Of a stretch of DNA of 14,460 nucleotides, positions 190-13,166 are shown one piece after another. Each line of letters starts with the position of its first letter. Positions within the stretch are counted from its first letter, which is position 1. The notes below the pieces were generated by a model. The model saw only the letters and a program-made list of their open reading frames with translations. It had not been told where the DNA came from and made no database searches. The position numbers and the translations under genes are program-made. Origin of the DNA: Acidobacteriota bacterium (lineage in GTDB: Bacteria > Acidobacteriota > UBA6911 > JACQSX01); assembly GCA_036507075.1 (NCBI GenBank), contig DASXQR010000106.1:1-14460 (forward strand). The letters are read 5' to 3'.

Positions 190-202
190 GAAGATTGTTG
201 GG

Positions 203-486
203 GAAGGCGGAAAGCTGGAAGGCGGAAGGCAGAAAGCAGAAGGCAGGAGGCAGGAGGCAGGAAGCAGGAGGCAGGAGGCGGGAAGCAGCATCAGTTTGGT
301 GGTGTTTTGGAAATGGAGGGTCCGCTTCTCCTGCCTCCTGCCTCCTGCCTTCTGCCTCCTGCCTCCTGTTTCTGCCTTCTGCTTCCTGCCTTCTGCTTCC
401 TGCTTCCTGCTTCCTGCTTCCTGCTTCCTGCCTTCTGCCTTCTGCTTTCTGCCTTCCGCTTTCTGGCTTTCCGGCTTCCGGCATTC
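203..486. repeat. Palindromic heptamer-array element 1: (RGGCAGR-like)n - spacer - (YCTGCCY-like)n
   Basis: Left arm ~203-288 of AGGCAGG/AGGCAGA/AAGCAGG units, unique spacer ~289-327, right arm ~328-486 of reverse-complement units. GCGGAAGGCAGAAAGCAGAAGGCAG in the left arm has an exact reverse complement in the right arm. Confidence 0.92.
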
Positions 487-513
487 GGCGGGTCTTGTGA
501 TATCGTTTAGGTC

Positions 514-1287
514 ATGCGTCCGGATAGAAGGGCTGCCGATCAATTGCGGCCGATTCGTATGGAGATTGACTTTATCAAGCATGCCGAAGGGTCCTGCCTG
601 GTGACTACCGGGGATACCAAGGTCGTCTGCACGGCCAGCGTGGAAGAAAAAGTCCCGCTGCATCAGAAGGGGACCGGCAAGGGATGGGTCAGCTCCGAGT
701 ACGGGATGCTTCCGCGGTCGACCGGTACGCGCATGGTGCGAGAGATTAATAAAGGAAGGCCTTCCGGGCGCACGCAGGAAATTCAGCGGCTCATCGGTCG
801 CGCTTTGCGGGCTGTTACCCGGCTCGAGCTGCTGGGCGAGCGCACCGTTTGGGTCGATTGTGACGTGATACAAGCCGACGGCGGCACCCGCACCGCCTCC
901 ATCACCGGCTCTTTTGTCGCTCTGGCCCTGGCCTTTCAAAAACTGGTGGAGACCCGGCATGCGCCGCAGGTTCCTCTGGTCGATTTTGTCGCCGCTACAA
1001 GCGTCGGAATTGTCAACGCTACGCCCTGCCTTGACCTCAGTTACCCGGAAGATTCCACCGCCGAAGTGGACATGAACGTTGTGATGACCGGCCGTGGTCT
1101 GTTTGTGGAAATCCAGGGAACCGCGGAGAAAACCGCCTTCAATGAGACTCAACTGCAGCAGCTCCTGGCGCTGGCGCGCAAGGGAATCCGCGAGCTCATC
1201 CAGGTCCAGGAAGAAGCACTGCGCAACAGGGTCGATCTTAGCTTCGTGCGCGATCCTTTCGCGGCTATTAACAGTCGCAGGCTGTAA
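514..1287 (+). CDS. rph: Ribonuclease PH
   Basis: 257 aa. [13 protein letters not shown] start, [39 protein letters not shown] and [18 protein letters not shown] are RNase PH signatures. Confidence 0.98.
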
Positions 1288-1544
1288 AGGCCGGAAGGCG
1301 GAAGGCAGGAAGCAGGAGGCAGGAAGCAGGAGGCAGGAGGCAGGAGGCAGGAGGCGGGATGGAGCGCCGGCGTGGGGTGTTGTTTGGAACATGGGGGGTC
1401 CGCTTACTTACGCGCGCGGTTCTGTCAGTGGTGAATCGAAATCTGCCTTCCGCCTTCTGCCTCCTGCGTCCTACCTCCTGCTTCCTGCCTTCCGCCTTCT
1501 GCTTTCCGCTTTCTGCCTTCCGCGTTCTGCCTGCTGCTTTCCGC
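1288..1544. repeat. Palindromic heptamer-array element 2 (same family as element 1)
   Basis: Left arm ~1288-1358, spacer ~1359-1441, right arm ~1442-1544. GAAGGCGGAAGGCAGGAAGCAGGAG has an exact reverse complement in the right arm. The spacer is homologous to that of element 1. Confidence 0.92.
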
Positions 1545-1580
1545 GGTGATAAGATAGATGCGTAAACTGGTGTAGCTACG

Positions 1581-3086
1581 TTGAAACGCATCTTTATTCC
1601 CGCGCTCTTTCTGTTGTTTGCCGCTGTTTGGTTTTCCTTCGGCCAGGACCTGCAGTTTTTCAGCGAAAACAAGCGCAGCAATATCGAGCCGCGCGAGCAC
1701 AACCATGCCGACTATTACTCGCTGCGCGATGTGGCCGCTATCTTCAGCCTTGCACGCGAGGAGCGCAGCCCGCAGGAATTTGTCCTGCGCGGTCCCAAAG
1801 GAAGCGTCTTCTTTTTCCGCGACCGCGCCGAAATCCGCGTCAATGGCGAAATGGTGAGCCTGAACCGGCCCGTGTGGCGGCGCAAGGACGAGCACTGGTA
1901 CGTCACCTCGGATTTCTTTGACAAGGCGCTGCCGCGAATCATAGGCGTGCAGTTGGTGCGCAGATCGGCCACCAGCTTCGAGCTGCAAGCGCCCGCCCCC
2001 CCTCCGGAAGTGCGCGCGCAGCTTCGCATTCAGACTGCAGTCTCACCCGATCATGTGCGGCTGATCCTGGAGCCCTCGCAAGCGGCCGACTTCCAGGTGC
2101 GGGATGCGGGCAGTGCCGTTGAGATATCCTCTGCAACCAGGTTTGCGGCCCCGTCGGTTCCCACTCTTCCCAACCAGCCTTTTGTGGGACGAATTTCCTA
2201 CGATGCTGCCAAAGGGATGCTGCGCGTGGAGAAGGGGCCGAATTTCCAGAGCCGGCGCGAACAGACGCTGGAGAACCCGCCGCGCAAGGTAGTCGATTTC
2301 TATGGCCCGCCCGCCGTTCCCGAAACGCTTCCGCCGCCGCCAACTTCGGAAGTTCCAGTGCTGCCGCCCATCGGCGTTACTCCGGATATCCCCGCAGTCC
2401 AGGCTAAAAAATTCGTGCGGCGGCCCAACAGAAATGTAATTGTACTGGACAGCGGTCACGGCGGATCCGATCTGGGTGTTCATCCCACCACCGAGCTGAT
2501 GGAGAAGAATCTGACTCTGGTACTGGCCCAGAATATCAAGGCCGCCATTGAAGCGGCCGGTACGTACCGGGTCGTGATTACCCGTCAAGGAGACACCTTG
2601 ATGCCGATCCTCCATCGTACCGCGATTGCAAACTCGTTTCAGGCGGAAGCCTTCGTGAGCCTTCATTTCGGAGGTTCCTACGATACACAATTGCGCGGCC
2701 CGCGAGTCTACTTCTACCAGGAAAGGTTGCAGTCGCCGGCCGCAAGTCAGCCTGCTGCCGAACAGGGTCAGGAGCAGACCCAGGCGGTTGCTGCGCCCCT
2801 GGGACTGAAGCCCTGGCGCTCGGCCCAGGCATCGTTCGCGCCGCGCAGTCGTCTGCTGGCAGAACGCCTGCAGTTAAAATTGAACGAAGTCTTTGGAAGA
2901 TCCGATGCACAGCCCGGAACGAATCAGTTTCTGGTGCTGCAGGGCTCGATTTCGCCGGCGGTCATTTTGGAGGCCGGATATCTGAGCAATCCCGATGAGG
3001 CAAAGTTTCTGGCTGAACCGAAGAACATGAAGGCGGTGGCGGGCGTTATTGCGACAGGAATTCTCGATTTTCTAGGTACAAAATGA
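1581..3086 (+). CDS. Secreted N-acetylmuramoyl-L-alanine amidase (Amidase_3, AmiA/B/C-like)
   Basis: N-terminal signal peptide (MKRIFIPALFLLFAAVWFSFG) and Pro-rich linker. C-terminal catalytic domain has IVLDSGHGG, EKNLTL, R-AIAN, FVSLH and ILEAGYLSNPDE, so the Zn ligands H/E/H and the catalytic E are present. TTG start. Confidence 0.9.
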   Translation: MKRIFIPALFLLFAAVWFSFGQDLQFFSENKRSNIEPREHNHADYYSLRDVAAIFSLAREERSPQEFVLRGPKGSVFFFRDRAEIRVNGEMVSLNRPVWRRKDEHWYVTSDFFDKALPRIIGVQLVRRSATSFELQAPAPPPEVRAQLRIQTAVSPDHVRLILEPSQAADFQVRDAGSAVEISSATRFAAPSVPTLPNQPFVGRISYDAAKGMLRVEKGPNFQSRREQTLENPPRKVVDFYGPPAVPETLPPPPTSEVPVLPPIGVTPDIPAVQAKKFVRRPNRNVIVLDSGHGGSDLGVHPTTELMEKNLTLVLAQNIKAAIEAAGTYRVVITRQGDTLMPILHRTAIANSFQAEAFVSLHFGGSYDTQLRGPRVYFYQERLQSPAASQPAAEQGQEQTQAVAAPLGLKPWRSAQASFAPRSRLLAERLQLKLNEVFGRSDAQPGTNQFLVLQGSISPAVILEAGYLSNPDEAKFLAEPKNMKAVAGVIATGILDFLGTK

Positions 3087-3754
3087 GCGACCAAATGGAA
3101 CAGCAGCCTGAAAGCGAAACGTACTTCCCCGGCACCGAGCCGCAACCGTCCGACGTTGAGCGTCCCACGGACCGCCCGTTCTACTCGTATTCGAGGCATA
3201 CCATCTGGATTCTACTGCTTTGTCTGTTGGGTGTTGTGGTCGCTGGAACTTTATTCTGGAGAGAGCGTCAAAGGCTGGCCGGCGAGAGCAAAGCCGCAGG
3301 CGACATCAATATGGAGCGCGAAGAATTGGCGGGCGCCAACCTGGGAAGGATTTCCTCAAAGGTTTATTTTCTGGGAACGGCCGGTCATACGCTGCAGCCT
3401 TTGCCGCGCCAGATATTTGCGGCGCGCGCTCCCGAAGTGCGCGCGCGCCAGTTGGTCCAGGCGTTGATTGAAGGCCCGTTGGAAGGGGAGTCTCAGAACA
3501 TGCTGCCTGTCCTCCCGAAACAAACAAAGATCCGCCAGATTTTTATGCTGAAAGACGGCACCATGATCGTCGACCTGTCCGAAGAGGTGGTTAATCTGCT
3601 GCCGGGCGGAATTGACAGCGAAGTGACCGCGATGGAATCAATCGAGCGCACGCTGCTGGAGAACGAAAAAGCGATCAAAGCGGTGCGGTTTTTGATCAAC
3701 GGCAAAGATACCGAGACGTTTGCCGGGCATATAGCGGTTCAAGTGACCGGTTGA
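3083..3754 (+). CDS. GerMN-domain membrane-anchored protein
   Basis: Single TM segment, then VYF, LVQALIEGP, LP--TKI, VDLS, SIERTL and VRFLINGK...TFAGH, typical of GerMN. ATGA overlap with the amidase stop implies translational coupling. Confidence 0.85.
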   Translation: MSDQMEQQPESETYFPGTEPQPSDVERPTDRPFYSYSRHTIWILLLCLLGVVVAGTLFWRERQRLAGESKAAGDINMEREELAGANLGRISSKVYFLGTAGHTLQPLPRQIFAARAPEVRARQLVQALIEGPLEGESQNMLPVLPKQTKIRQIFMLKDGTMIVDLSEEVVNLLPGGIDSEVTAMESIERTLLENEKAIKAVRFLINGKDTETFAGHIAVQVTG

Positions 3755-4051
3755 CAGGGGCAAGAATAACCAGTTGTGCGTGGTCCGTTGTCCGTGGTCA
3801 GTGGTCCGTTGTCAGTTGCTTGTGGCCAGTGGTCCGTGGAATGCAGAATGTGGAATGCGGAATGTGGAATGGAGAATGCGGAATCTGGAATGCGGAACGT
3901 GGAATGTTTTCACAGGGAATTTGAAGTGAGCCTTCGGGATTTCACTTCGACGTATTCCGCATTCCGCATTCCGAAATCCGCATTATTATGGGAGCAACGG
4001 ACAACTGACAACGGACAACACGCCAAACTGGTTATTCTTGCTCCTGTCAAC
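3750..4051. repeat. Nested palindromic element 3 (unique 26-bp IR > GTCMGTK array > GGAATGY array > central hairpin)
   Basis: 3750-3775 GTTGACAGGGGCAAGAATAACCAGTT matches the reverse complement of 4026-4051 at 25/26. GTCCGTT/GTCAGTG units ~3783-3838 mirror ~3995-4020. GGAATGC/GGAATGT units ~3838-3906 mirror ~3954-3984. Central stem-loop at 3921-3950. Confidence 0.92.
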
Positions 4052-4064
4052 TTGTAACTTGTAC

Positions 4065-4163
4065 GGAGGTGCTTTCGGGCTGGTGTCCGGCACGGTCTTC
4101 AAAACCGTTGGGTCGGCGCGAGAGCGTCCGATTGGTGGGTTCGATTCCCATGCGCCTCCGCCA
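4065..4163 (+). tRNA. selC: tRNA-Sec (anticodon TCA)
   Basis: 99 nt. 8-bp acceptor stem GGAGGTGC/GCGCCTCC, 6-bp D-stem with 4-nt loop (TCGGGC-TGGT-GTCCGG), anticodon arm ACGGT-CT TCA AA-ACCGT, long variable arm, 5-bp T-stem GTGGG-TTCGATT-CCCAT, G discriminator and CCA. This is the bacterial 8/5 tRNA-Sec fold. Confidence 0.97.
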
Positions 4164-4219
4164 GACCTCCCTGGTTTTCCGAGGCAGACCTTCCGGAGGC
4201 ATGGGGTCCTCCACCTGCA

Positions 4220-4283
4220 CTTTGTGTCTTTTGTGTCTTTGTGGTGATTCTTCTTTGACCACAAAGGCACAAAGGGCACAAAG
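4220..4283. repeat. Palindromic 8/9-mer element (CTTTGTG)n-spacer-(CACAAAG)n
   Basis: CTTTGTGTCTTTTGTGTCTTTGTGGT, 12-nt spacer, ACCACAAAGGCACAAAGGGCACAAAG. Confidence 0.85.
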
Positions 4284-4330
4284 AAGGCGTTCCCATTGAG
4301 GGCGAAAAAACTGCTATTCTTGCCTGCAGG

Positions 4331-5491
4331 ATGAAATCCGCTTCCACTCTGTTTGTAGAACCAGAAGACCGGCTGCGCGCGCTGCGCCATTGGGCCGAAG
4401 CGCAGCAGTTCAGCCCGCCATGGTGGTTGCGGCAACCCGACGTACAGACGGCCTGGTACGTGATCCGCGAGATTGCCGCGGCGCTCAAAGACAGGCGCGC
4501 ATCTTCCACACTGGTGTGGGACTACGTTGTGGGACAACACGCAAAGGAAGAGAAGATTTCGCGAAACCCGGAAGGGGTGACGGCAGACGCAGAGGCAAGC
4601 CGCCCGGGGCGCCCGCTTATCAATGAAGAGGTGTTTCCGGTCAACATTCCTTTCGACGACGACGGATACCTGACTGCAATTTTGCACCTCACAGGAGATC
4701 GCCGGCGGCTGGCGATTTTGTTTCACGGGCTGGAAGGAAGCATCGAAGCGACCTACATGCGCGGCGCCAGCCGGGAGTTGCTGCGAAAAGGAATCTCGGT
4801 GCTGCGCGTCAATATGGTCAACTGCGGCGGAAGCGAAGGATGCAGCCGTCGCTTTTATCACGCAGGCTTCACGCTGATGCTCGAAATCGCCGTTCAGTGG
4901 GCTATCACTAACGGGTTCGAGCGTGTGACGATTGTCGGTTTTTCGCTTTCCGCAAACCTGGTCCTCAAATATCTCGGAGGCTCGAATTTTTCCGGTTGTG
5001 CGGAGGTGTGCGGCGGCGTGGCCGTCTGCCCGCCGATTGATCTGGCGCAGGGTGTCGCCCAGATCGACCGGCCGAGGAATGTTTTTTACCGTTACCGCTT
5101 TTTGAAGTCGATGTTAAAGACGCTGGAAAAAAAACAACGGCTGTTTCCGGATCTGTTCCCCGTACCGGTAACCAATGTAAAAACCATTGCCGAATTCGAC
5201 GATCGCTATACTGCCCGAGCCTGTGGCTTTCCAAGCGGCCGCGAGTATTACCGTCGCACCAGCTCTCTTCCATATCTGAACAAAATCGCCCTGCCTACAC
5301 TGCTTCTTCACTCTCAGGACGACATCTTCATTCCTTTTGACGCTTTTCGCCGGTTCGACTGGCAGTGCAATCCCTGTTTGATCACACTTTTCCCGCGCCA
5401 TGGAGGGCATGTCGGCTTTCATTCCTCGGCGCGGGAAAACTGGATGGAACGAAGTATTGCAGAGTTCGCAGAACGACTGACGCATTTCTGA
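4331..5491 (+). CDS. Alpha/beta hydrolase, YheT/ABHD1-3-like esterase
   Basis: PPWWL...VQT near the N-terminus, HGLEGS oxyanion motif, FYHAG, nucleophile elbow GFSLS, EFDDRYTA, SQDD acid and GGHVGF catalytic His. Confidence 0.85.
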   Translation: MKSASTLFVEPEDRLRALRHWAEAQQFSPPWWLRQPDVQTAWYVIREIAAALKDRRASSTLVWDYVVGQHAKEEKISRNPEGVTADAEASRPGRPLINEEVFPVNIPFDDDGYLTAILHLTGDRRRLAILFHGLEGSIEATYMRGASRELLRKGISVLRVNMVNCGGSEGCSRRFYHAGFTLMLEIAVQWAITNGFERVTIVGFSLSANLVLKYLGGSNFSGCAEVCGGVAVCPPIDLAQGVAQIDRPRNVFYRYRFLKSMLKTLEKKQRLFPDLFPVPVTNVKTIAEFDDRYTARACGFPSGREYYRRTSSLPYLNKIALPTLLLHSQDDIFIPFDAFRRFDWQCNPCLITLFPRHGGHVGFHSSARENWMERSIAEFAERLTHF

Positions 5492-5753
5492 AATTAATTC
5501 CACGCCCTTCCTTTTTTTCAGCCAGGCGTCTCGACGTCTTTGCCTCCTGAGACGGCGGGTTTCCGCTTTTGTCGCCGGCGCGTAATTTTTGACGGGCTTG
5601 CTCCAAAAAAATGAAGCGACAAAAAAACATCGCAGACTTCGGCTTTTCAGTCATCTGGAGCCACAAATCCGTTGACCGAGTTTGAACGTATATTCATCGT
5701 AAGAGATTTAATGTCAACTTTTTTGGGCGTTCTGAATCCTTATGGAAGGTTAT

Positions 5754-5769
5754 TGGTACGCGAGTTGCT
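5754..5769 (+). promoter_or_regulatory. Putative sigma-54 (RpoN) -24/-12 promoter
   Basis: TGGTACG-CGAG-TTGCT versus consensus TGGCACG-N4-TTGCW: one mismatch and exact GG-N10-GC spacing. It lies ~38 nt upstream of an ATG with a GGAG RBS. Confidence 0.7.
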
Positions 5770-5806
5770 TTTAAGAGAACGGTTTTGCGAACGGAGAGAA
5801 AAGACA

Positions 5807-5974
5807 ATGTTTTATGACGCGTTGGGGATCCTGTTTCTGGTCCTGATTGGTGCTTTTTTCTTGTTCTTGCCTCTGGCGACCAGCGGGTTGCTGGTTTGGG
5901 GATTCGATCGAGTGCGCACCGTCGTCGATTCCCATCGTCGAGGCCTAACCACTCCTGCAAACACTCAAAGCTAG
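5807..5974 (+). CDS. Small (55 aa) hydrophobic membrane protein of unknown function
   Basis: ATG at 5807 preceded by GGAGAG. MFYDALGILFLVLIGAFFLFLPLATSGLLVWGFDRVR... has a long hydrophobic stretch then a basic tail. Upstream promoter motif and downstream hairpin. The track's longer 5672 start is unlikely. Confidence 0.6.
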   Translation: MFYDALGILFLVLIGAFFLFLPLATSGLLVWGFDRVRTVVDSHRRGLTTPANTQS

Positions 5975-5985
5975 CCCGCCTTGAC

Positions 5986-6029
5986 GAGCAGTGATTTCAC
6001 GGGGTTATTCGTGAGTTCACTGCTCCCAC
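5986..6029. repeat. Stem-loop (REP-like or terminator) after the small ORF
   Basis: GAGCAGTGATTTCACG-GGGTTATT-CGTGAGTTCACTGCTC followed by CCAC. The minus strand begins GTGGGAGC, resembling GTRG-footed REP sequences. Confidence 0.6.
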
Positions 6030-6273
6030 CTTCTTTCAAGGGCGCCGGCGAGTTCTTTTCTACGAGGGTTTCAAAAATTTGATCTGCGGTTCACAATTTT
6101 GTCATGACCAACCTTTCTGTACGAAGGAAATCTCTTGGCTCTCACAACCGGAAACTTTGGTCGCAGGCAGGGCAAAGAACTGCGACATTTAGAGTCACAC
6201 TTCGTCGAGCCGGCAAGTCCGGGTGTAGAAATTGCTTTTCTCAAACCTGCCTTTAGCGATATTTTGGAATCCG

Positions 6274-7098
6274 ATGGGAACTGACAAGATCGTAGATAAG
6301 ATCCAGCAATGGCGCGATCTCAAATCCGAAGGCGTCGATTATCTGGATCTGCCGACGCGCGACCGGGCGGAAAGCCTTGAATTGCTGGATTCATTTCCCA
6401 TCCGTCTTCCCAAGCGTGATTATCAGAAGTTCATCAACGGATTCACCACCGAATACCTGGTCCGGACCCGCCGCCGCGACCTGATCAAGCATTACCTGCT
6501 GTATCGCAGATTTCGAGAGCAGGGATTAATCACTCTGCTGTCGCAGAAATCCGAGACCGAGTGGTTTCTGACTCTGATGTCTGCGGATCACCCTTTCCTG
6601 TTTTCTCAGGTCACAGGTTTGTTGGCCTCCAGAGGAATGGACATCCTGGTGGCGGAAGCGTTCACGCACCGCGACAGTTTTGCGCTCGATCATTTCACTT
6701 TTCTGGACAAGCAGAAGCAACTGCGCAACGAAGACGATCGTAAGAACTTCCAGTCTCTTCTGGAAAGCTATCTGGGAACCGACTCGCTCCCCGAGGACCT
6801 GCTGCCTGCGGAAAAAGAATTCGAACCTTTCGCCGAGGGCGAAGTAACGATCGATCTGATGGATCTGAAGGATCTGAAACAAACGGCGCTCTCCATTGAA
6901 TGCCCGGACCGCCACGGTCTCTTGTTCCGCATCAGTGCCACTCTGTCACGCATGGGAATCGACATAAACTCGGCATTCATCGAAACCAGCGAGAACGTGG
7001 CACACGATCTTTTTCTGGTGACGCAACAGGGAAAACCGCTGCGGGAGAAGGATCACGCCGAACTGGCCGCCGAGCTGAAAGGCCGCCTCACGAGTTGA
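6274..7098 (+). CDS. Stand-alone tandem ACT-domain protein similar to the GlnD C-terminal regulatory region
   Basis: ACT1 DHPFLFSQVTGLLASRGMDILVAEAFT...ALDHF and ACT2 DRHGLLFRISATLSRMGIDINSAFIET...AHDLFLV match the GlnD ACT pair. No nucleotidyltransferase or HD motifs. ATG at 6274 preferred over TTG at 6232. Confidence 0.75.
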   Translation: MGTDKIVDKIQQWRDLKSEGVDYLDLPTRDRAESLELLDSFPIRLPKRDYQKFINGFTTEYLVRTRRRDLIKHYLLYRRFREQGLITLLSQKSETEWFLTLMSADHPFLFSQVTGLLASRGMDILVAEAFTHRDSFALDHFTFLDKQKQLRNEDDRKNFQSLLESYLGTDSLPEDLLPAEKEFEPFAEGEVTIDLMDLKDLKQTALSIECPDRHGLLFRISATLSRMGIDINSAFIETSENVAHDLFLVTQQGKPLREKDHAELAAELKGRLTS

Positions 7099-7100
7099 GA

Positions 7101-7156
7101 CACGAATTAACACGAATTTCACGAATTAACACGAATTCTTTGGGCACGAATTTGTG
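7101..7156. repeat. CACGAATT 9/10-mer tandem array
   Basis: CACGAATT starts at 7101, 7111, 7120, 7130 and 7145, between and overlapping convergent gene ends. Confidence 0.85.
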
Positions 7157-7662
7157 ATCAAAATCCAGACCGTGACGGGACTCCATAGCACCAGTTCAAG
7201 CAGCGTGTAGGGGATCGCCACCTGCAGGCTGTTCGGCTCTCCGCCGAAACGGCGATAGAGCGGCACCAGAAAACTTTCATATCCAAAAGGTTCCCGGCTG
7301 AAGGGCCATAACAGTGTTTCTCCATGTCTGGCCACGCTCGCTACGCAAAAGAAATCGAGGAAAAGATGCGACAGAAGAACCAGGTAGATGACCAGCCAGT
7401 CGCGCCATACGGTCACCCATCCGGCCCGCTTGCCGACAAAAAATGCCGCCAGAGACGCCACCAGCGTAAACGTAAATGAGTGTGTGAAGGTCCGATGGTA
7501 CTGGCGCAGGCCAAGGCCAAGAGCCGCTACAAAAAAGAAATCGAAATCAGGAAGAATCGAAAGCGTGAGCCAGAACAGGGCCTTCCCGGGCGAGTGAATC
7601 CTTTGTCCGAACGCCGTTGCGATTCCGCAGCCGAGGCTAAAGTGGGCGAGAGGAAAGGCCAT
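7126..7662 (-). CDS. Membrane-bound metal-dependent hydrolase (YdjM-like)
   Basis: N-terminal His, SILPDFD, HRTFTHS, SHLFLD and LLWPF motifs with several TM helices. Confidence 0.85.
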   Translation of the reverse strand: MAFPLAHFSLGCGIATAFGQRIHSPGKALFWLTLSILPDFDFFFVAALGLGLRQYHRTFTHSFTFTLVASLAAFFVGKRAGWVTVWRDWLVIYLVLLSHLFLDFFCVASVARHGETLLWPFSREPFGYESFLVPLYRRFGGEPNSLQVAIPYTLLELVLWSPVTVWILITNSCPKNSC

Positions 7663-7665
7663 CGG

Positions 7666-7880
7666 TCATTGTCAGTGGTCAGTGGTCAGTGGTCCGTTGT
7701 CAGTGGTCAGTGGTCAGTGGTCAGTGGTGTCAGTTGTCAGTTGTCAGTTGTAGTCAGTTGTCAGTGGTTACTGACCCTATTGAGCCCGTCATGGGCTGCA
7801 ATTACTATTCCCTGAATTTGCAAAAGGAGAACCGACAACGGACAACTGGCCACTGACAACGGACCACTGACAACGGACAA
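7666..7880. repeat. Palindromic heptamer-array element 4: (GTCAGTK)n - spacer - (MACKGAC)n
   Basis: Left arm ~7666-7767, spacer ~7768-7830, right arm ~7831-7880. GTCAGTGGTCCGTTGTCAGTGG has an exact reverse complement in the right arm. Confidence 0.92.
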
Positions 7881-7890
7881 GTTCGGCGCC

Positions 7891-8115
7891 TCAGCGTTCC
7901 GGATAGACCTGTGCTCCGCTCTTCTCATCCACGATTGTAATTGCCTCGGTTGGGCAGCCTTGGGCGGCATCGCGGATCGACTTTTCGGGATCTCCGGCAG
8001 GGTTTGTGACAACGGACAAGCCCGAGTCATCGAGCGCGAAAGTATTGGGCGCTTCGGAAACACAAATTCCTGACCCGATACATTTGCTGTGATCGACAGT
8101 GATTTTCCATCCCAT
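7891..8115 (-). CDS. Monocluster ferredoxin, probably [3Fe-4S]
   Basis: 74 aa. ITVDHSKCIGSGIC...AP..F...AAQGCPTEAI gives C-x2-S-x2-C...CP. GGAGG RBS upstream. Confidence 0.9.
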   Translation of the reverse strand: MGWKITVDHSKCIGSGICVSEAPNTFALDDSGLSVVTNPAGDPEKSIRDAAQGCPTEAITIVDEKSGAQVYPER

Positions 8116-8142
8116 AAGTCCTCCGAAATTGTTACAACCTGG

Positions 8143-8195
8143 CTTGGTGGCTTGGTGCCTTGGTGGTCCGAGTTTTCAACCACAAAGGCGCCAAG
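8143..8195. repeat. Palindromic 8-mer element (CTTGGTGS)n-spacer-ACCACAAAGGCGCCAAG
   Basis: CTTGGTGG CTTGGTGC CTTGGTGGT, 11-nt spacer, right arm 15/17 identical to the reverse complement of the left arm. Same architecture as 4220-4283. Confidence 0.75.
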
Positions 8196-8240
8196 TCAGT
8201 CGAATTACATGAATTCGTAACCCGAAAACCCGCAATCGGA

Positions 8241-9419
8241 TCACATTCTATCAACTTGCCGCTTACTCTTCCCTGGTTGCTGCGCGGCAATGCGCGAGAG
8301 AATCCCCACGGCGGCCGAACAAAGTGGAAGGATGGAAATCGCTGTGACAATTCCCCTGCGCAGGGCAATCTGACCGATCGTTGCCGGCACACTCATTCCG
8401 CCCAGTGTGGAGCAGGCGAATAAAGCCCCGAAGACAGCGCCGGAGTTTTGGCTGAACCGGGCTCCCATAATCGACAGTGCTGTGGGAAAAATTCCCGCCA
8501 GCGCGTAGCCGAGAAGAAAAACGCCTGCCACTTGCACAACCAGGGTTTTTGAATAGAGCATCAGCAGCCAGGCCAAGGCGGCAGTGAATGCGGAGAAAAA
8601 CATGAATCGTATCTCCGGAACACGCTTCAGCCAGAACCCGACGCCCAGTCGCGCAACCATTACGGCGCCCCAAAACAGCGCCAGGACCCAGGAAGCCTGC
8701 CGGTTGTCCAGCCCCCGGCCACGGGTAAACAGAGTACTGATCCAGCCGCTGGAAGAATATTCAGTTCCGCTTTGAAAGAAAAGCAGCAGCCCCATGATCA
8801 GAACCAGCGGATGAGACAGCATTTTGAGCATCGAGCCGACCGGCAGTTGATCGCGCTGCTTCGCAGATGGAAATTTCAGGAAAAGGAAAGCGGCGGCGGC
8901 CAGCACAGCAATGGCTGTGGCCGAAAACAATACTCCTTTCATTCCGAGCACCGCCAACAGGCTTCCCATCAGAAAGGGAATAAACAGGGCGCCGATGCTG
9001 AAAAACATCCCCAGCCGGTTCAAAGCAACCGTCCGGTCCTCGGGGTGCAAATCGGAAATCAGAGAATTGGTCGCATTATTCAGCGCGCCGCCCCCGAACC
9101 CGAGCAGAATACAGGCAACCGTCAGGCTGACGTAGCTTTGGGCCAGCGCCAGCACGGTAAAAGAAAACCCGATCAACAGCGGCGACACCAGAAGGGTCGT
9201 TTTGTAGCCGTTTCTGTCCACCAGCGGCCCGGCAATCAGCACGGCTGCGAATGAACCGAGGTTGAGAAAGAAAAAAAGGCTCCCAGCCTCGGCAATATTG
9301 ATATTGCGCGATTGCAGCATGAGCGGCATGATCGCGCCCAGCATCGTGAAAACGGTTCCGAAGACAAACATTCCCAGATGGCAGCCGCGCGTGAGTCCCC
9401 GAACCGACGCGTTATTCAT
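8241..9419 (-). CDS. MFS transporter (probable sugar permease)
   Basis: 392 aa, ~12 hydrophobic segments, MFS motif A GPLVDRNGYK. ATGA overlap with the SIS gene. Confidence 0.88.
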   Translation of the reverse strand: MNNASVRGLTRGCHLGMFVFGTVFTMLGAIMPLMLQSRNINIAEAGSLFFFLNLGSFAAVLIAGPLVDRNGYKTTLLVSPLLIGFSFTVLALAQSYVSLTVACILLGFGGGALNNATNSLISDLHPEDRTVALNRLGMFFSIGALFIPFLMGSLLAVLGMKGVLFSATAIAVLAAAAFLFLKFPSAKQRDQLPVGSMLKMLSHPLVLIMGLLLFFQSGTEYSSSGWISTLFTRGRGLDNRQASWVLALFWGAVMVARLGVGFWLKRVPEIRFMFFSAFTAALAWLLMLYSKTLVVQVAGVFLLGYALAGIFPTALSIMGARFSQNSGAVFGALFACSTLGGMSVPATIGQIALRRGIVTAISILPLCSAAVGILSRIAAQQPGKSKRQVDRM

Positions 9420-10174
9420 CGCGACGACCTGATCCGTTCGCGATAATGTTCAAAGATTTGCTTATTGTGGTCCGGCGCAGCTCCCGAGACGTTGGGAGAT
9501 ACAAAGGGCCTGACCGCGTGCCCCTTTGCGCGCAGCAGCACGGCCGTCTCGGAAACCAGTGCCATGGAAACTGCAACGGCTGCCAGCGTCGAGCCGGCTC
9601 CGACCTTCACCGCCAGTCCGGAAATCTCAACCTGGGCGTCTTCCGGCTCAATGCAGTTGTCAATAACGATGTCGCAGCAGTCGAAAAGCTTCTTCCCCGA
9701 AGTATGGGTAGAAGCGGCCTCCTTTTGGTTCCGGGCGGATGCCACCCCGATGACGGTCAGACCGCGGCGACGCGCCTCGAGGGCGGCTTCCAGTGGAGCT
9801 GCGTTCAAGCCGCCGTGCGAAAAAACCAGAAAAGAGTCGCGCGCCTGCAACGGAAAACTTGCAAGAAAATGCTGGATGTAGCCCGGCTGCCGCTCGAGCC
9901 ACAGCAGCTCGGGGGCGCCGCCGGGCCCGACGACGTTAAACCACATCAGCCTCGGGTCCATCAGCGGATAGAATCCGACGTAGCTTCCGTAGCGAGGAAA
10001 GATGTCGAGCACCGGAATTACCGAATGCCCGCTTCCAAAGACATAACACCATCCTCCGGCACCGATCGAATCTGCGATCGCTTGGGAGGCTCGTCGAATG
10101 GCAGGCAGTTGGCTTGATTCAATTCTCTTGAGGATTTCCTGAGCCCGATTCAGGTAAGTTTCCGATGACATCAC
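9416..10174 (-). CDS. SIS-domain (sugar isomerase) protein, UPF0309-like
   Basis: VFGSGHS, FPRYGS, FSHGGLNAAPLE, VIGV-S, DIVIDN and GSTLA motifs. GGAG RBS; start is GTG 10174 or ATG 10171. Confidence 0.85.
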   Translation of the reverse strand: MMSSETYLNRAQEILKRIESSQLPAIRRASQAIADSIGAGGWCYVFGSGHSVIPVLDIFPRYGSYVGFYPLMDPRLMWFNVVGPGGAPELLWLERQPGYIQHFLASFPLQARDSFLVFSHGGLNAAPLEAALEARRRGLTVIGVASARNQKEAASTHTSGKKLFDCCDIVIDNCIEPEDAQVEISGLAVKVGAGSTLAAVAVSMALVSETAVLLRAKGHAVRPFVSPNVSGAAPDHNKQIFEHYRERIRSSR

Positions 10175-10205
10175 CGCTCCATTTCAAGAATTTGAGTCAG
10201 AACTT

Positions 10206-11144
10206 TCATGTGCGTTCCTTGGACCTTCCACGTTCAACTTTCAAACCCTCGAAGCAGACGCGGGCTGCGCCCAAAAGGGAAGCTTCATACCCAAGATCAG
10301 AGCCGGCCAATCGAACTTTTTTGCCGCTCACAGGCTGAGCATGTAGCTCAATTGTGCGGCGAATGGTCGGTTCCATCAGGTCCAGGCCATGCCGCATTCC
10401 TCCGCCAAAGACGATAAGTTCCGGATCGAAAGCAGCAATCAGGTTGCAGAGACCCAGCCCGATATACGTCGCTGTCTGGCGCACTACTTCAAGCGCTTCG
10501 TTTTCTCCTTGACGCGCCCTGTCAAAGATCGACCGGGGCTCCTCCCGGCGACCCGAAACGTCGGCATATCGTCTTGACAGCGCCGGACCGGCCGCCGCTT
10601 CTTCCCAGGTCAATGGAATCTTCTTCTCACCGAAAAGCGCCGGCAAGATGAACCATCCCACTGCGCCCGCCACTGAATGCGCGCCCGAAACGGTTCGGCC
10701 GTCGCACATAACGCCCATTCCGATGCCTGTGCCGATGATCAAGTAGATGCAGTTGATACAATCGCGCGCACAGCCCAGCCAGGCCTCGCCCATCAGGCTT
10801 GCGTTGCGATCACTTTCGATAAAGACCGGAACAGTCAGCCGTTCCGTCAGGAGTCTTCGCAGCGGGATCCAGTCCCAACCGGGAACATTCGGCGCCCAAA
10901 CCCTTTCTTCTGCAGGATCCCAGATGCCGGGCACCGCAAGGCCCCACGCCATTACCGCCGATGTCGTTTCAGCGGTGGCCCGCTGATAAGAGCGCACGAG
11001 CTGATCGAGCGATGCTTCAAGCCCGGTTCTGGAGATATTCTCCTCGTGCACGCACAGTCGCTCCCCCGAACTCGACACCACCGCAGTGGCTATTTTGGTG
11101 CCGCCGACGTCGGTTGCCACCACCCACTGACGCACTGTATCCAT
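10206..11144 (-). CDS. ROK family sugar kinase
   Basis: DVGGTKI, GLAVPG, APNVPGW, ESDRNA..GE.W.G, IGTGIGMG, AGAVGW, FDPELIVFGGG and LLGAA. No N-terminal HTH, so kinase rather than repressor. Start placed at MDTVRQ (11144) because the track's extension to 11492 runs through repeats; a slightly earlier GTG/TTG start is possible. Confidence 0.88.
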   Translation of the reverse strand: MDTVRQWVVATDVGGTKIATAVVSSSGERLCVHEENISRTGLEASLDQLVRSYQRATAETTSAVMAWGLAVPGIWDPAEERVWAPNVPGWDWIPLRRLLTERLTVPVFIESDRNASLMGEAWLGCARDCINCIYLIIGTGIGMGVMCDGRTVSGAHSVAGAVGWFILPALFGEKKIPLTWEEAAAGPALSRRYADVSGRREEPRSIFDRARQGENEALEVVRQTATYIGLGLCNLIAAFDPELIVFGGGMRHGLDLMEPTIRRTIELHAQPVSGKKVRLAGSDLGYEASLLGAARVCFEGLKVERGRSKERT

Positions 11145-11228
11145 TTGAGCCGGCCCGAGACGTGGCGAGTCTATCGTTTCATCCAGACGGTCTACAATCA
11201 CCAATCCGCGGTTCAGTAGTGAGAGGAT

Positions 11229-11308
11229 GTCAGTGGTCCGTTGTCCGTGGTCCGTAGAGACTCTGAAAGTCGAAAGTCCGCGACTACTGACAACGGGCGA
11301 CGGACAAC
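11229..11308. repeat. Palindromic heptamer-array element 5 (GTCMGTK family, short)
   Basis: GTCAGTG GTCCGTT GTCCGTG GTCCGTAG, 26-nt spacer containing GAAAGTC twice, then CTACTGAC AACGGGC GACGGAC AAC. Confidence 0.8.
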
Positions 11309-11370
11309 CCTGTGTCCCCTGTACTACTAACCATGAGAATTTTCGCGGCCTGCACAAATTATTTGGGAGC

Positions 11371-11398
11371 GGAGAGACGGCCCTCGGGCCGTCTCTCC
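11371..11398. repeat. REP-like hairpin GGAGAGACGGCC-CTCG-GGCCGTCTCTCC
   Basis: Perfect 12-bp stem with 4-nt loop. Related copies at 11928-11952 and 11992-12016. Confidence 0.8.
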
Positions 11399-11472
11399 TT
11401 GACTTTTGGTTGCGGCTTCGCCGCGCTAAGCCTCTGTGGTGAAGTTCTTCCTCAATCCGGAATCCGTCCAGG

Positions 11473-11501
11473 TTGACAAAGCGCAGTGGCACTCTTACTA
11501 T
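11473..11501 (+). promoter_or_regulatory. Sigma-70 promoter of the FmdB-family gene
   Basis: TTGACA (11473-11478), 17-nt spacer, TACTAT (11496-11501). AGGAGG RBS before ATG 11547. Confidence 0.8.
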
Positions 11502-11546
11502 CTATCGGGCTGAGACCCGCGCCAGTGCTGAGTTTCAGGAGGACGA

Positions 11547-11885
11547 ATGCCCTTATACGAATACCAGTGTTCCGAATGTGGAAACAACTTCGAGGTGATC
11601 CAGAAGTTCGCTGATCCACCTGTGGACAAGTGCCCCAAGTGCGGAGGCAAAGTGGATAAGAAACTATCCGCGCCGGCAATTCAGTTTAAAGGCCAGGGCT
11701 GGTACATCACTGATTACTCACGCAAAGGCGGGGAATCCAAGCCCGATTCAACGAAAGAATCGAAAGCGGGAGAAGCGAAAACAGAAGGCGCCAAAGAACC
11801 CTCAAAAACAGAGCCATCTAAAGAGACGTCTAAAGAAACCCCAAAAAAAGACTCTTCCCCGAAGGAAAAGGCGAGCGTGGGATAA
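11547..11885 (+). CDS. FmdB-family zinc ribbon protein
   Basis: MPLYEYQCSECG..FE...CPKCGG...S...FKGQGWYITDY followed by a low-complexity K/E/S/T tail. Confidence 0.9.
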   Translation: MPLYEYQCSECGNNFEVIQKFADPPVDKCPKCGGKVDKKLSAPAIQFKGQGWYITDYSRKGGESKPDSTKESKAGEAKTEGAKEPSKTEPSKETSKETPKKDSSPKEKASVG

Positions 11886-11892
11886 GTATCAA

Positions 11893-12058
11893 GGCCGCTG
11901 TAAGCGGCCAGCGCGGCTTCGCCGCGCGGAGAGACGTCCTGAGGGACGTCTCAGGGAATGTCGCAGGATTGCCCTGCCGTCGACTTCGCCCGAGACGGCC
12001 ATCGGGCCGTCTCTCCACTCTCAAAAATGTCCAAACTCCATGGCCGCTGTAAGCGCCT
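11893..12058. repeat. Hairpin cluster with an inverted REP-like doublet in the convergent FmdB/galU gap
   Basis: GGCCGCTGTAAGCG at 11893 and 12042, GCGCGGC-TTC-GCCGCGC at 11911-11927, GGAGAGACGTCC-TGAG-GGACGTCTC on the plus strand and its inverted partner GAGACGGCC-ATCG-GGCCGTCTCTCC. Confidence 0.75.
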
Positions 12059-12092
12059 AAGAGTGACAAACCCAGGACCGCTTCGCCGAAGG

Positions 12093-13001
12093 TCAGCGGC
12101 GCGCGCCCGTTTTCTCCTGGATCAATTCAAGCCCCTGTAAGTACTTCCGAAACGGCGGTCCGAGATCCTCGCGCTTGAGGGCGAATTCCACCGTCGCTTT
12201 CAGGAACTCCAGTTTGTCGCCTGCATCAAATCTCTTCCCGCGGAATTTGAATCCGTATACCGGCTCACTCTCCATAAGGTGTCGGATTCCGTCGGTAAGC
12301 TGAATCTCTCCTCCCGTGCCGGGCTGAGTTTCCTCGAGGGCCTGAAAGATGCGTGGAGTGAGCGCGTAACGGCCGATGACCGCCAGCCGCGAAGGGGCGT
12401 CCCGGGGCGACGGTTTTTCCACCACATTGCGCAAGCGAAACAATCGATTCCCGCCGGCTGGATCTTCTTCCGGATCGATAATCCCGTAACGATCCACCGC
12501 GGACGGCTCCACATCCATAACGGCCAGAATGGAGGTGCCGGTCTTCTGAAACATCTCCATCAGTTGCTTCATAACGGGCACTTCCGCGTCAATGATGTCA
12601 TCGCCGAGCAATACGGCAAAAGGTTCGTCGCCCACCAGTCGCTGCGCCATTAACACGGCGTGACCGAGACCCAGGGCCTCCTTTTGGCGCACATAGGAAA
12701 CGTGGATCAGTTCGGAGATCTGCTGCACCTGGCGCAGCAAATCCAGTTTGTTGCGCGAACTGAGAATGGATTCAAGCTCGTAGGAAACATCGAAGTGATC
12801 TTCGATGGAATTTTTCCCGCGGCCCGTCACCATTATGATGTTGTCAATCCCCGACTGAACGGCCTCTTCGACAACGTACTGGATGATCGGCTTATCCACC
12901 AGGGGAAGCATTTCCTTGGGCTGGGCTTTGGTTGCCGGCAGGAATCGCGTCCCCAGTCCGGCGGCTGGAAAAACTGCTTTTCGAATCTGGTTTGGAGTCA
13001 T
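12093..13001 (-). CDS. galU: UTP--glucose-1-phosphate uridylyltransferase
   Basis: KAVFPAAGLGTRFLPATKAQPKEMLPLVDKP, RQKEALGLGHAV, FAVLLGDD, VEKP and GGEIQLTD. Confidence 0.97.
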   Translation of the reverse strand: MTPNQIRKAVFPAAGLGTRFLPATKAQPKEMLPLVDKPIIQYVVEEAVQSGIDNIIMVTGRGKNSIEDHFDVSYELESILSSRNKLDLLRQVQQISELIHVSYVRQKEALGLGHAVLMAQRLVGDEPFAVLLGDDIIDAEVPVMKQLMEMFQKTGTSILAVMDVEPSAVDRYGIIDPEEDPAGGNRLFRLRNVVEKPSPRDAPSRLAVIGRYALTPRIFQALEETQPGTGGEIQLTDGIRHLMESEPVYGFKFRGKRFDAGDKLEFLKATVEFALKREDLGPPFRKYLQGLELIQEKTGARR

Positions 13002-13018
13002 CTCTTTTGCTTTCTATA

Positions 13019-13166
13019 CACGAATTTTCACGAATGACACGAATTTCACGAATCCTATAACTTAAGTTAGGCACGAATTTTCACGAATGAGACGAATTTC
13101 ACGAATCTTCTAAATAACTTCGTGCGATTCGTGTAAATTCGTGAAAATTCGGCTCAATCTTTTCGT
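13019..13166. repeat. CACGAAT 9/10-mer element with a duplicated block and an inverted arm
   Basis: 36-nt block CACGAATTTTCACGAATGA(C/G)ACGAATTTCACGAATC at 13019-13054 and 13072-13107 (one mismatch), then reverse-complement (A)TTCGTG units at ~13119-13166. Confidence 0.9.

Follow-up and report, generated by a model that had tools for sequence, protein, structure and literature searches.

Inverted tandem-repeat arrays of an Acidobacteriota genome as probable gene-less relatives of repeat-flanked cassettes with a putative competence-type promoter motif

Results

Inverted pairs of tandem-repeat arrays occupy gene boundaries in a 14,460-nucleotide stretch of DNA from an Acidobacteriota bacterium (the window; GenBank assembly GCA_036507075.1, contig DASXQR010000106.1, here C106), one contig of a 6.1-Mb genome in 233 contigs (G000). 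These elements are very probably non-autonomous copied elements, and we interpret them as gene-less derivatives of cassettes that consist of a repeat arm, a promoter-like motif, a gene for a four-helix-bundle protein (TIGR02436) or a GxxExxY protein (TIGR04256), and an inverted arm. An earlier, sequence-only reading of the window had proposed that the elements are empty members of a system whose protein is encoded elsewhere, and gene-less relatives of cassettes lying outside the window are indeed what we found.

All eight two-armed elements and the one-armed array of that reading are present where it had placed them. The eight pairs fold well below dinucleotide shuffles, 40 of which were made for each (z of the better strand −4.7 to −18.6), and the single array near 7100 folds no better than such shuffles (z −1.3). 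The one shared design that had been proposed, tandem array, spacer and inverted array, was recovered, except that elements 3 and 7 are nested composites and element 8 consists of three arrays. Arrays make up 1,102 of the 3,031 intergenic bases of the window. They are listed here with their unit families (F1 to F18, defined below) and without strand unless one is given.

Element 1, 200..476: F5 inverted pair, arms 200-288 and 321-476, 32-nt spacer, between tRNA-Pro and rph.
Element 2, 1290..1545: F5 pair, arms 1290-1359 and 1442-1545, beginning 3 nt past the rph stop; its spacer contains an arm of a different dispersed repeat (about 140 genome matches) and is one of a cluster of 16 spacers.
Element 3, 3770..4020: F3 pair (3770-3839, 3994-4020) around an F1 pair (3836-3909, 3951-3985).
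Element 4, 4219..4285: F12 short-arm pair in inside-out arm order, 12-nt spacer, past tRNA-Sec.
Single F4 array, 7087..7154, minus strand: overlaps the stop of the GlnD-like gene, without a hairpin.
Element 5, 7667..7880: F3 pair (7667-7770, 7829-7880), 58-nt spacer without a homolog.
Element 6, 8140..8195: F12 inside-out pair with a degenerate right arm, below the scoring of the family model.
Single F2 array, 8215..8237, plus strand: beside the stop of the major facilitator superfamily (MFS) gene; missing from the earlier reading.
Element 7, 11228..11309: F3 pair (11228-11257, 11281-11309) with an F9 arm (11262-11280) within.
Element 8, 13017..13151: three F4 arrays (13017-13054, 13070-13108, 13114-13151) between the divergent genes galU and serS.

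Genome-wide census of the arrays

A genome-wide scan for tandem and inverted repeats revealed 18 unit families with fixed polarity. Of 1,716 seed arrays from Tandem Repeats Finder (TRF), k-mer clustering placed 1,670 in the families F1-F18; clustering by unit distance was dropped because it merged distinct families. With the family models, 3,548 arrays were detected in 6.1 Mb at a score of 80, compared with 5 in 3 Mb of simulated sequence, and only 137 of them lie mostly inside called genes (calls of our own caller, about 77% coding). Same-family neighbours at most 300 nt apart are not oriented at random but show a large excess of inverted pairs (1,220, against 29 on the same strand). Of the 1,220 inverted pairs, 1,141 keep to the arm order of their family, as do 600 of 600 at a score of 150; F12 is the exception, with both orders occurring (72 and 108), and elements 4 and 6 show the inside-out one, in which the spacer is close to 14 nt long. 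Once arrays had been merged, the genome contained 3,398 arms. Of these, 2,318 belong to pairs and 1,080 do not, the latter including 121 near contig ends, 202 with a weak partner and 48 with a sister-family partner.

Elements 3 and 4 are covered by overlapping contigs of two soil runs with 0-1 differences (the check covered positions 1600-7600 of the window, and one run is possibly the source of the assembly). Since contigs of both runs span the two elements in overlapping pieces, these are not assembly artefacts.

The spacers had been described as unique; however, 372 of 807 have a homolog in the same family, with clusters of up to 57, and 62 pairs are nested in other pairs. Elements 1 and 2, which lie 1.1 kb apart, have in common a 31-nt spacer core (27/31 identical) that has no other genome match at 25/35. 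Spacer length is tight where spacer sequence is variable (F10, 80-82 nt; F1, a peak near 37-39 nt; F12 inside-out, 12-14 nt; F4, 6-12 nt), which suggests a geometric constraint.

The order of unit variants had also been reported to be mirrored between arms. Genome-wide, the excess of mirroring is real (16.0 vs 14.4 nt in the control; 686 pairs higher and 441 lower of 1,148), but it is too small to support strong correction of one arm against the other. The longest exact arm matches in elements 1, 2 and 4 are 27, 26 and 9 nt, lengths equalled by 4, 8 and 18 of 20 unrelated same-family arms, respectively, and no window element exceeds all 20 control arms.

Gene cassettes between arms of the same families

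The G000 assembly, which is 95.7% complete, contains seven TIGR02436 loci (eight matches) and six TIGR04256 loci. Six of the seven TIGR02436 loci lie between same-family arms, each of another family (F5, F2, F11, F14, F3 and F7). Three of the TIGR04256 loci lie between modelled same-family arms (F8, F12 and F4), a fourth is flanked by an unmodelled repeat identified by eye, and the other two are bordered by a scored arm on just one side. Three of the seven and two of the six loci, respectively, are broken. Intact four-helix-bundle proteins are encoded on C199, C88, C225 and C37, and intact GxxExxY proteins on C83, C37, C140 and C145. In the relatives, the same families, F1 and F9 included, enclose the same gene kinds in the same arm order; one row of this comparison comes from G015. 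Thus, full copies enclose recurrent gene families, and the tie to TIGR02436 and TIGR04256 that the sequence-only reading had put forward holds in G000 and its relatives. No cassette gene of either kind and no promoter motif was found when the window was scanned for them. A scan for enclosed genes with our own caller returned 16 genes (three cassettes, 12 ordinary genes between F12 arms and one F3 case); as it missed known cassettes, we claim no new enclosed gene family.

Proteins and repeat units sort together: for 21 of 23 proteins, the nearest neighbour belongs to the same unit family (5,000 permutations: mean 2.7, maximum 12). This rests on 24 labelled rows out of about 50 examined, some labels having been set by eye; the protein tree has 49 rows, including one from G015, on which no claim rests.

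Descent by internal deletion is documented in two families. Promoter remnants are present in 11 of 794 spacers, ten of F14 and one of F11. The F14 series leads from a full cassette to several near-identical copies that retain the promoter and the last codons of the gene, and one F11 pair is likewise a promoter-plus-remnant copy. Two F14 cassettes are 90% identical over 599 nt and have different neighbours.

The GxxExxY protein corresponds to Pfam PDDEXK_3, with an invariant D and E-x-K. Its predicted structure (pLDDT 94) gave weak matches to Cas4, AddAB and lambda exonuclease (best E 3.4e-3); a sequence search of the PDB returned no match, and a fold search returned none at E 0.001. Broken GxxExxY genes (L113 and L114) were also seen immediately downstream of dprA in G001 and G003. 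The four-helix-bundle proteins belong to PF05635 and are related to Xcc0516 (2gsc, five chains); bAvd-type four-helix-bundle pentamers bind nucleic acid. Neither of the two reverse-transcriptase matches of G000 lies beside a cassette, and the larger is of the group II intron type. Damaged group II intron-like reverse transcriptase genes were noted at L121 (1962-3170) and L122 (701-1429), the first back to back with a motif-bearing gene.

A putative competence-type promoter motif

A two-part motif, TTCGY-N18-GTTATGT, lies upstream of the cassette genes. It has 61 genome matches at at least 19 bits and none in 3 Mb of simulated sequence. The motif also precedes ssb, dprA, comF, comEC, a comEA-like gene, a pilin gene, radC, comM, recA, recQ, recG, pcrA and an ERCC4 nuclease gene; such a gene set is typical of competence regulons. 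It stands before six of seven four-helix-bundle loci, five of six GxxExxY loci and 10 of 12 matches to Y1 transposases (RAYT-like, RAYT being a repetitive extragenic palindrome (REP)-associated tyrosine transposase), and the loci without it are fragments or at a contig edge. With a matrix built from 13 host genes alone, each of the 11 cassette sites reached 22-42 bits, and 24 of the 32 cassettes in the relatives G001-G004 reached at least 15 bits, two of the misses lying right behind dprA; a locus of G015 was one of the 22 control loci in this test. These findings suggest that the motif is a competence promoter, and we consider it likely that the cassette genes are expressed at the time of competence.

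Several further genes carry the motif. At L028 (G000, C17, 70862-72620), a helix-turn-helix gene, an extracytoplasmic function sigma factor gene (71533-72093) and a gene for a zinc-finger anti-sigma/tetratricopeptide repeat protein lie together. The motif is located in the last part of the sigma gene, upstream of the anti-sigma gene, and the locus is a candidate competence sigma switch. Others are found in G000 on C28 (575-2368), C97 (18644-19267), C48 (57222-58103), C83 (143915-144415), C17 (72728-72964), C192 (97720-99135) and C57 (18379-18768). The uncharacterised ones, among them a coiled-coil pair, the ERCC4 nuclease, a DUF7674 protein and a weak NucS-like match, are candidate new competence genes.

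Copying, turnover and insertion

Of the 372 spacers with a homolog, 35 have their best one on their own contig (expectation 6.2; reciprocal pairs counted twice), and in 29 of these the distance is at most 15 kb. Adjacent pairs are of the same family in 105 of 714 cases against 60.8 ± 7.6 expected. The only paralog of element 3 (84% over 146 nt, nested likewise) begins at the stop codon of serS, about 10.5 kb away, on contig C190; this contig and the end of the window have 141 nt in common. Such local copying fits a donor and target on one single-stranded stretch, as supplied by transformation and also by replication forks.

Presence and absence differ between relatives, orthologous gaps being empty or filled with other families. 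Among four relatives of the same taxonomic family, the rph-amidase gap measures 7-8 nt in three and contains other unit families in one, and none of three relatives has an F4 array between galU and serS. No two of five genomes agree in what they hold before tRNA-Sec: G003 has the older outer inverted repeat that surrounds element 3 and lacks the inner arrays, and G001, G002 and G004 have three other heptamer pairs (two identified by eye). Upstream of the same gene as element 5, G001 carries a nested F5 and F7 pair. Nine gaps that hold a cassette in relatives hold none in G000, and cassettes with 96%-identical proteins occupy different sites in G001 and G003. One cassette (L082 vs L091), flanked by the same two genes in G001 and G003, points in opposite directions in these genomes, either by inversion between the arms or by independent insertion. 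Target-site duplications of at least 5 nt flank 5.1% of pairs and 5.1% of shuffled controls, with ends set by the models, so that short ones could be missed.

Other features of the window

The genes of the window are tRNA-Pro, rph, an amidase gene, a GerMN-like gene (a label assigned in this analysis), tRNA-Sec, a hydrolase gene, the GlnD-like gene, an MFS/SIS/ROK block, an FmdB-type gene, galU and serS. A single-copy non-coding stretch without arrays (5492-6231) surrounds a 55-codon open reading frame (ORF; 5807-5974). Three further repeats, also without strand, were noted.

3737..4064 (3737-3782 / 4019-4064): older 46-nt inverted repeat of a further family, surrounding element 3; the family is often beside tRNA genes (6 of about 15 places), and this repeat is kept at the same site in G003.
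11330..11460: REP-like palindrome composite, non-tandem, of a family with hundreds of genomic matches.
11890..12092: second composite of the same palindrome family, between the FmdB-type gene and galU; this palindrome also borders two broken RAYT-like genes (C17 and C82) that bear the promoter motif.

Discussion

Our preferred account of these results would be that a unit-specific cassette protein, made during competence, recognises the elements as single-stranded DNA hairpins, which are then copied into other intergenic gaps. Each protein would read its own unit, so that the mover of an element would be the protein of its own family. GxxExxY proteins may cut, and four-helix-bundle proteins may act as binding adaptors that rely for catalysis on recombination enzymes of the host or on the motif-bearing HUH enzymes. 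Arm length would afterwards drift by slippage. We give this full model of unit-specific mobilisation on single-stranded DNA a probability of about one half.

Several observations weigh against it. Promoter and gene remnants were seen in two families only, neither of them one of the window's own, so that descent from cassettes is extrapolated for the latter. For F1, the largest long-arm family with its 437 arrays, and for F9, a cognate gene is present in G001/G003 but absent from the G000 assembly, and about 700 of 3,398 arms have no partner. The protein-unit concordance can be plain co-inheritance among kin; as kin are not independent, it shows co-inheritance and not recognition, and the G000 protein between F3 arms is no near neighbour of the F3-like proteins from relatives. 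Beyond the taxonomic family, only 13 of 66 four-helix-bundle genes score at least 8 bits for the motif (controls 1/66, 0/122 and 0/440); since upstream regions of host genes from relatives themselves score in only 13 of 34 cases, the link is present there but partial or diverged. An alignment of 16 four-helix-bundle proteins has two invariant columns, and we know of no catalytic site in them. At six four-helix-bundle sites of relatives, G000 has an empty same-family pair in 0 of 6. Among the soil-run contig rows listed for window positions 1600-7600, no empty-site joint and no strain-level filled and empty alleles were seen.

A domesticated system resembling Ssn, in which the proteins cut or mark incoming single-stranded DNA at the hairpins and thereby tune recombination in transformation, the spread of repeats being secondary, is compatible with unit-specific mobilisation but, taken by itself, rather unlikely. 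Genes between their own repeats with hundreds of extragenic copies recall SsnA and its NTS, the motif is in common with uptake genes, and the GxxExxY model weakly matches Cas4/AddAB-type nucleases (best E 3.4e-3). However, the four-helix-bundle proteins are, to our knowledge, not nucleases, and cassette sites are not conserved, several cassettes are broken and the set of families changes from genus to genus, a pattern more in keeping with selfish elements than with a fixed role in the host.

It is also unlikely that HUH enzymes of the RAYT/IS200-like kind move all hairpins, with the four-helix-bundle and GxxExxY genes as hitch-hiking passengers. HUH chemistry leaves no target duplication, which agrees with the lack of one here; most of the Y1 transposase matches bear the same motif, and a REP-like stem often edges F14 arms. 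On the other hand, the observed agreement with unit family would be surprising for passengers, unless due to descent alone, and HUH transposase genes, which the earlier reading had considered as possible occupants of the tandem arms, are bordered by their own non-tandem palindromes instead. At seven Y1 loci (C122, C85, C201, C107, C32, C223 and C88), each RAYT-like gene has its own palindrome family (5-100 copies) and the motif; our literature search found no link between RAYT genes and competence.

We regard as improbable that the elements act in RNA, as RNase III sites or terminators kept for transcript processing like the ORF-bearing intervening sequences (IVS) of 23S rRNA. The Coxiella IVS, with its four-helix-bundle ORF and heptamer repeats, is in the published part considered here cut by RNase III (PMC4990558), and our elements are found close to stop codons (median distance 15 nt) and more often in convergent gaps than in others (pairs in 228/550 convergent, 629/2,398 co-directional and 153/541 divergent gaps). 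Yet the divergent gaps are far from empty, and the transcribed strand is favoured neither by hairpin stability (328 vs 289 of 621, p 0.13) nor by T runs after the hairpin (121 vs 113 of 649). The position bias is therefore best read as tolerance or targeting rather than terminator function, and the RNA-processing alternative offered by the sequence-only reading is unsupported; it would also leave the copying and the promoter motif unexplained. Plain slippage microsatellites or assembly artefacts can be dismissed as a full explanation given the fixed polarity, homologous spacers, enclosed gene families and read support for elements 3 and 4, although slippage may still set arm length, which varies widely in the long-arm families, and mirroring is weak.

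Heptamer short tandemly repeated repetitive (STRR) arrays are known from cyanobacteria. Inverted heptamer pairs are already in print (Rehm et al. 2015, PMC4692102; Aklujkar 2009, PMC2700814). In Xanthomonas and Nostoc they are intergenic, often inverted (70 and 75 cases), near stop codons and rare in divergent gaps, as far as the accessible text of that paper goes; in contrast to G000, there is one G-rich unit per genome, read as quadruplex-forming, and the same text reports no general link to mobile elements and names no cognate gene or promoter (PMC4692102). The paired 7/8-mer sites of Geobacter metallireducens likewise come in several families, on opposite strands and at variable distance, but were read as regulator binding sites, with no cassette link in the part of the paper available (PMC2700814). 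The Coxiella IVS has a PF05635 gene in a stem-loop with heptamer repeats, a layout found here in the cassettes and not in the window's empty elements; our elements differ in lying outside rRNA, between protein or tRNA genes, with an own promoter-like motif on the cassettes, about 1,150 gene-less pairs and no sign of RNA-strand selection (PMC4990558, accessible part).

The system works like REPIN/RAYT and Ssn/SRM, yet belongs to neither. As in REPIN/RAYT, judged from the available portion of Bertels and Rainey 2011 (PMC3116915), inverted hairpin-forming doublets are over-represented in extragenic space, a repeat group stands beside its own gene, insertion occurs into or next to existing elements and singlets resemble remnants. 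Here, however, the arms are tandem arrays of 6-10-nt units rather than palindromic REPs (the cosine between forward and reverse k-mers is 0.00-0.01 for 17 of the 18 families and 0.21 for the other, F14), the genes are TIGR02436/TIGR04256 and not RAYT, the motif is common with competence genes, and copying is local where REPIN doublets were reported to be randomly spread (PMC3116915). Ssn and its SRM/NTS repeats are alike in that hairpin repeats enclose a small gene to which they belong, that gene-repeat pairs are many and each has a specificity of its own, and that there is a link to natural transformation; SsnA/NTS lowers the transformation of repeat-bearing DNA (Chenal et al. 2025, PMC11893778, in the part considered). 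That system uses a GIY-YIG nuclease (PMC11893778), whereas ours has PD-(D/E)XK-type and four-helix-bundle proteins and tandem-unit arms; a GIY-YIG nuclease is not the enclosed gene, and the single short GIY-YIG gene of G000 is without the promoter motif. Internally deleted, multiplied copies of a full element, as in classical, DDE-derived miniature inverted-repeat transposable elements, are found in the F14 series and one F11 copy; the target-site duplications of that class, in contrast, are no commoner at our pairs than in shuffled controls. Diversity-generating retroelements, in which Avd is a partner, differ in that no reverse transcriptase of their type lies beside a four-helix-bundle gene in G000. 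The likeness to a competence regulon is in the motif common with comEC, comEA, comF, comM, dprA, ssb and radC.

No published link of tandem repeats to TIGR02436/TIGR04256 outside rRNA or to competence was found in a search that left subscription journals mostly outside, and the accessible text of PMC3686654 and of the myRT preprint (10.1101/2021.01.26.428298) contains nothing on a gene-repeat or promoter link. Added here are the deletion series, the protein-unit concordance, the turnover in orthologous gaps, the inverted cassette and the local copying.

Many bacteria abound in heptamer and similar tandem repeats for which there is no explanation, and no function has been assigned to the large protein families TIGR02436 and TIGR04256. 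G000 ties both together and provides paired predictions on which protein goes with which unit, and when it is made, each pair being a 110-140-residue protein and a short hairpin. Depending on how the neighbouring genes are oriented, between roughly a quarter and two fifths of gene gaps hold such elements, which could therefore influence how DNA recombines in transformation. Tentatively, and with more doubt than for the model above, four-helix-bundle "IVS proteins" and GxxExxY nucleases may be two unrelated solutions to one selfish strategy, namely dozens of lineage-specific readers of tandem-unit hairpins that are on only with competence and copy the hairpins along incoming or displaced single-stranded DNA. 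If so, the source of bacterial heptamer repeats would be named, orphan PF05635 proteins would be given a function, and a programmable set of repeat-specific binders and cutters of single-stranded DNA would be at hand.

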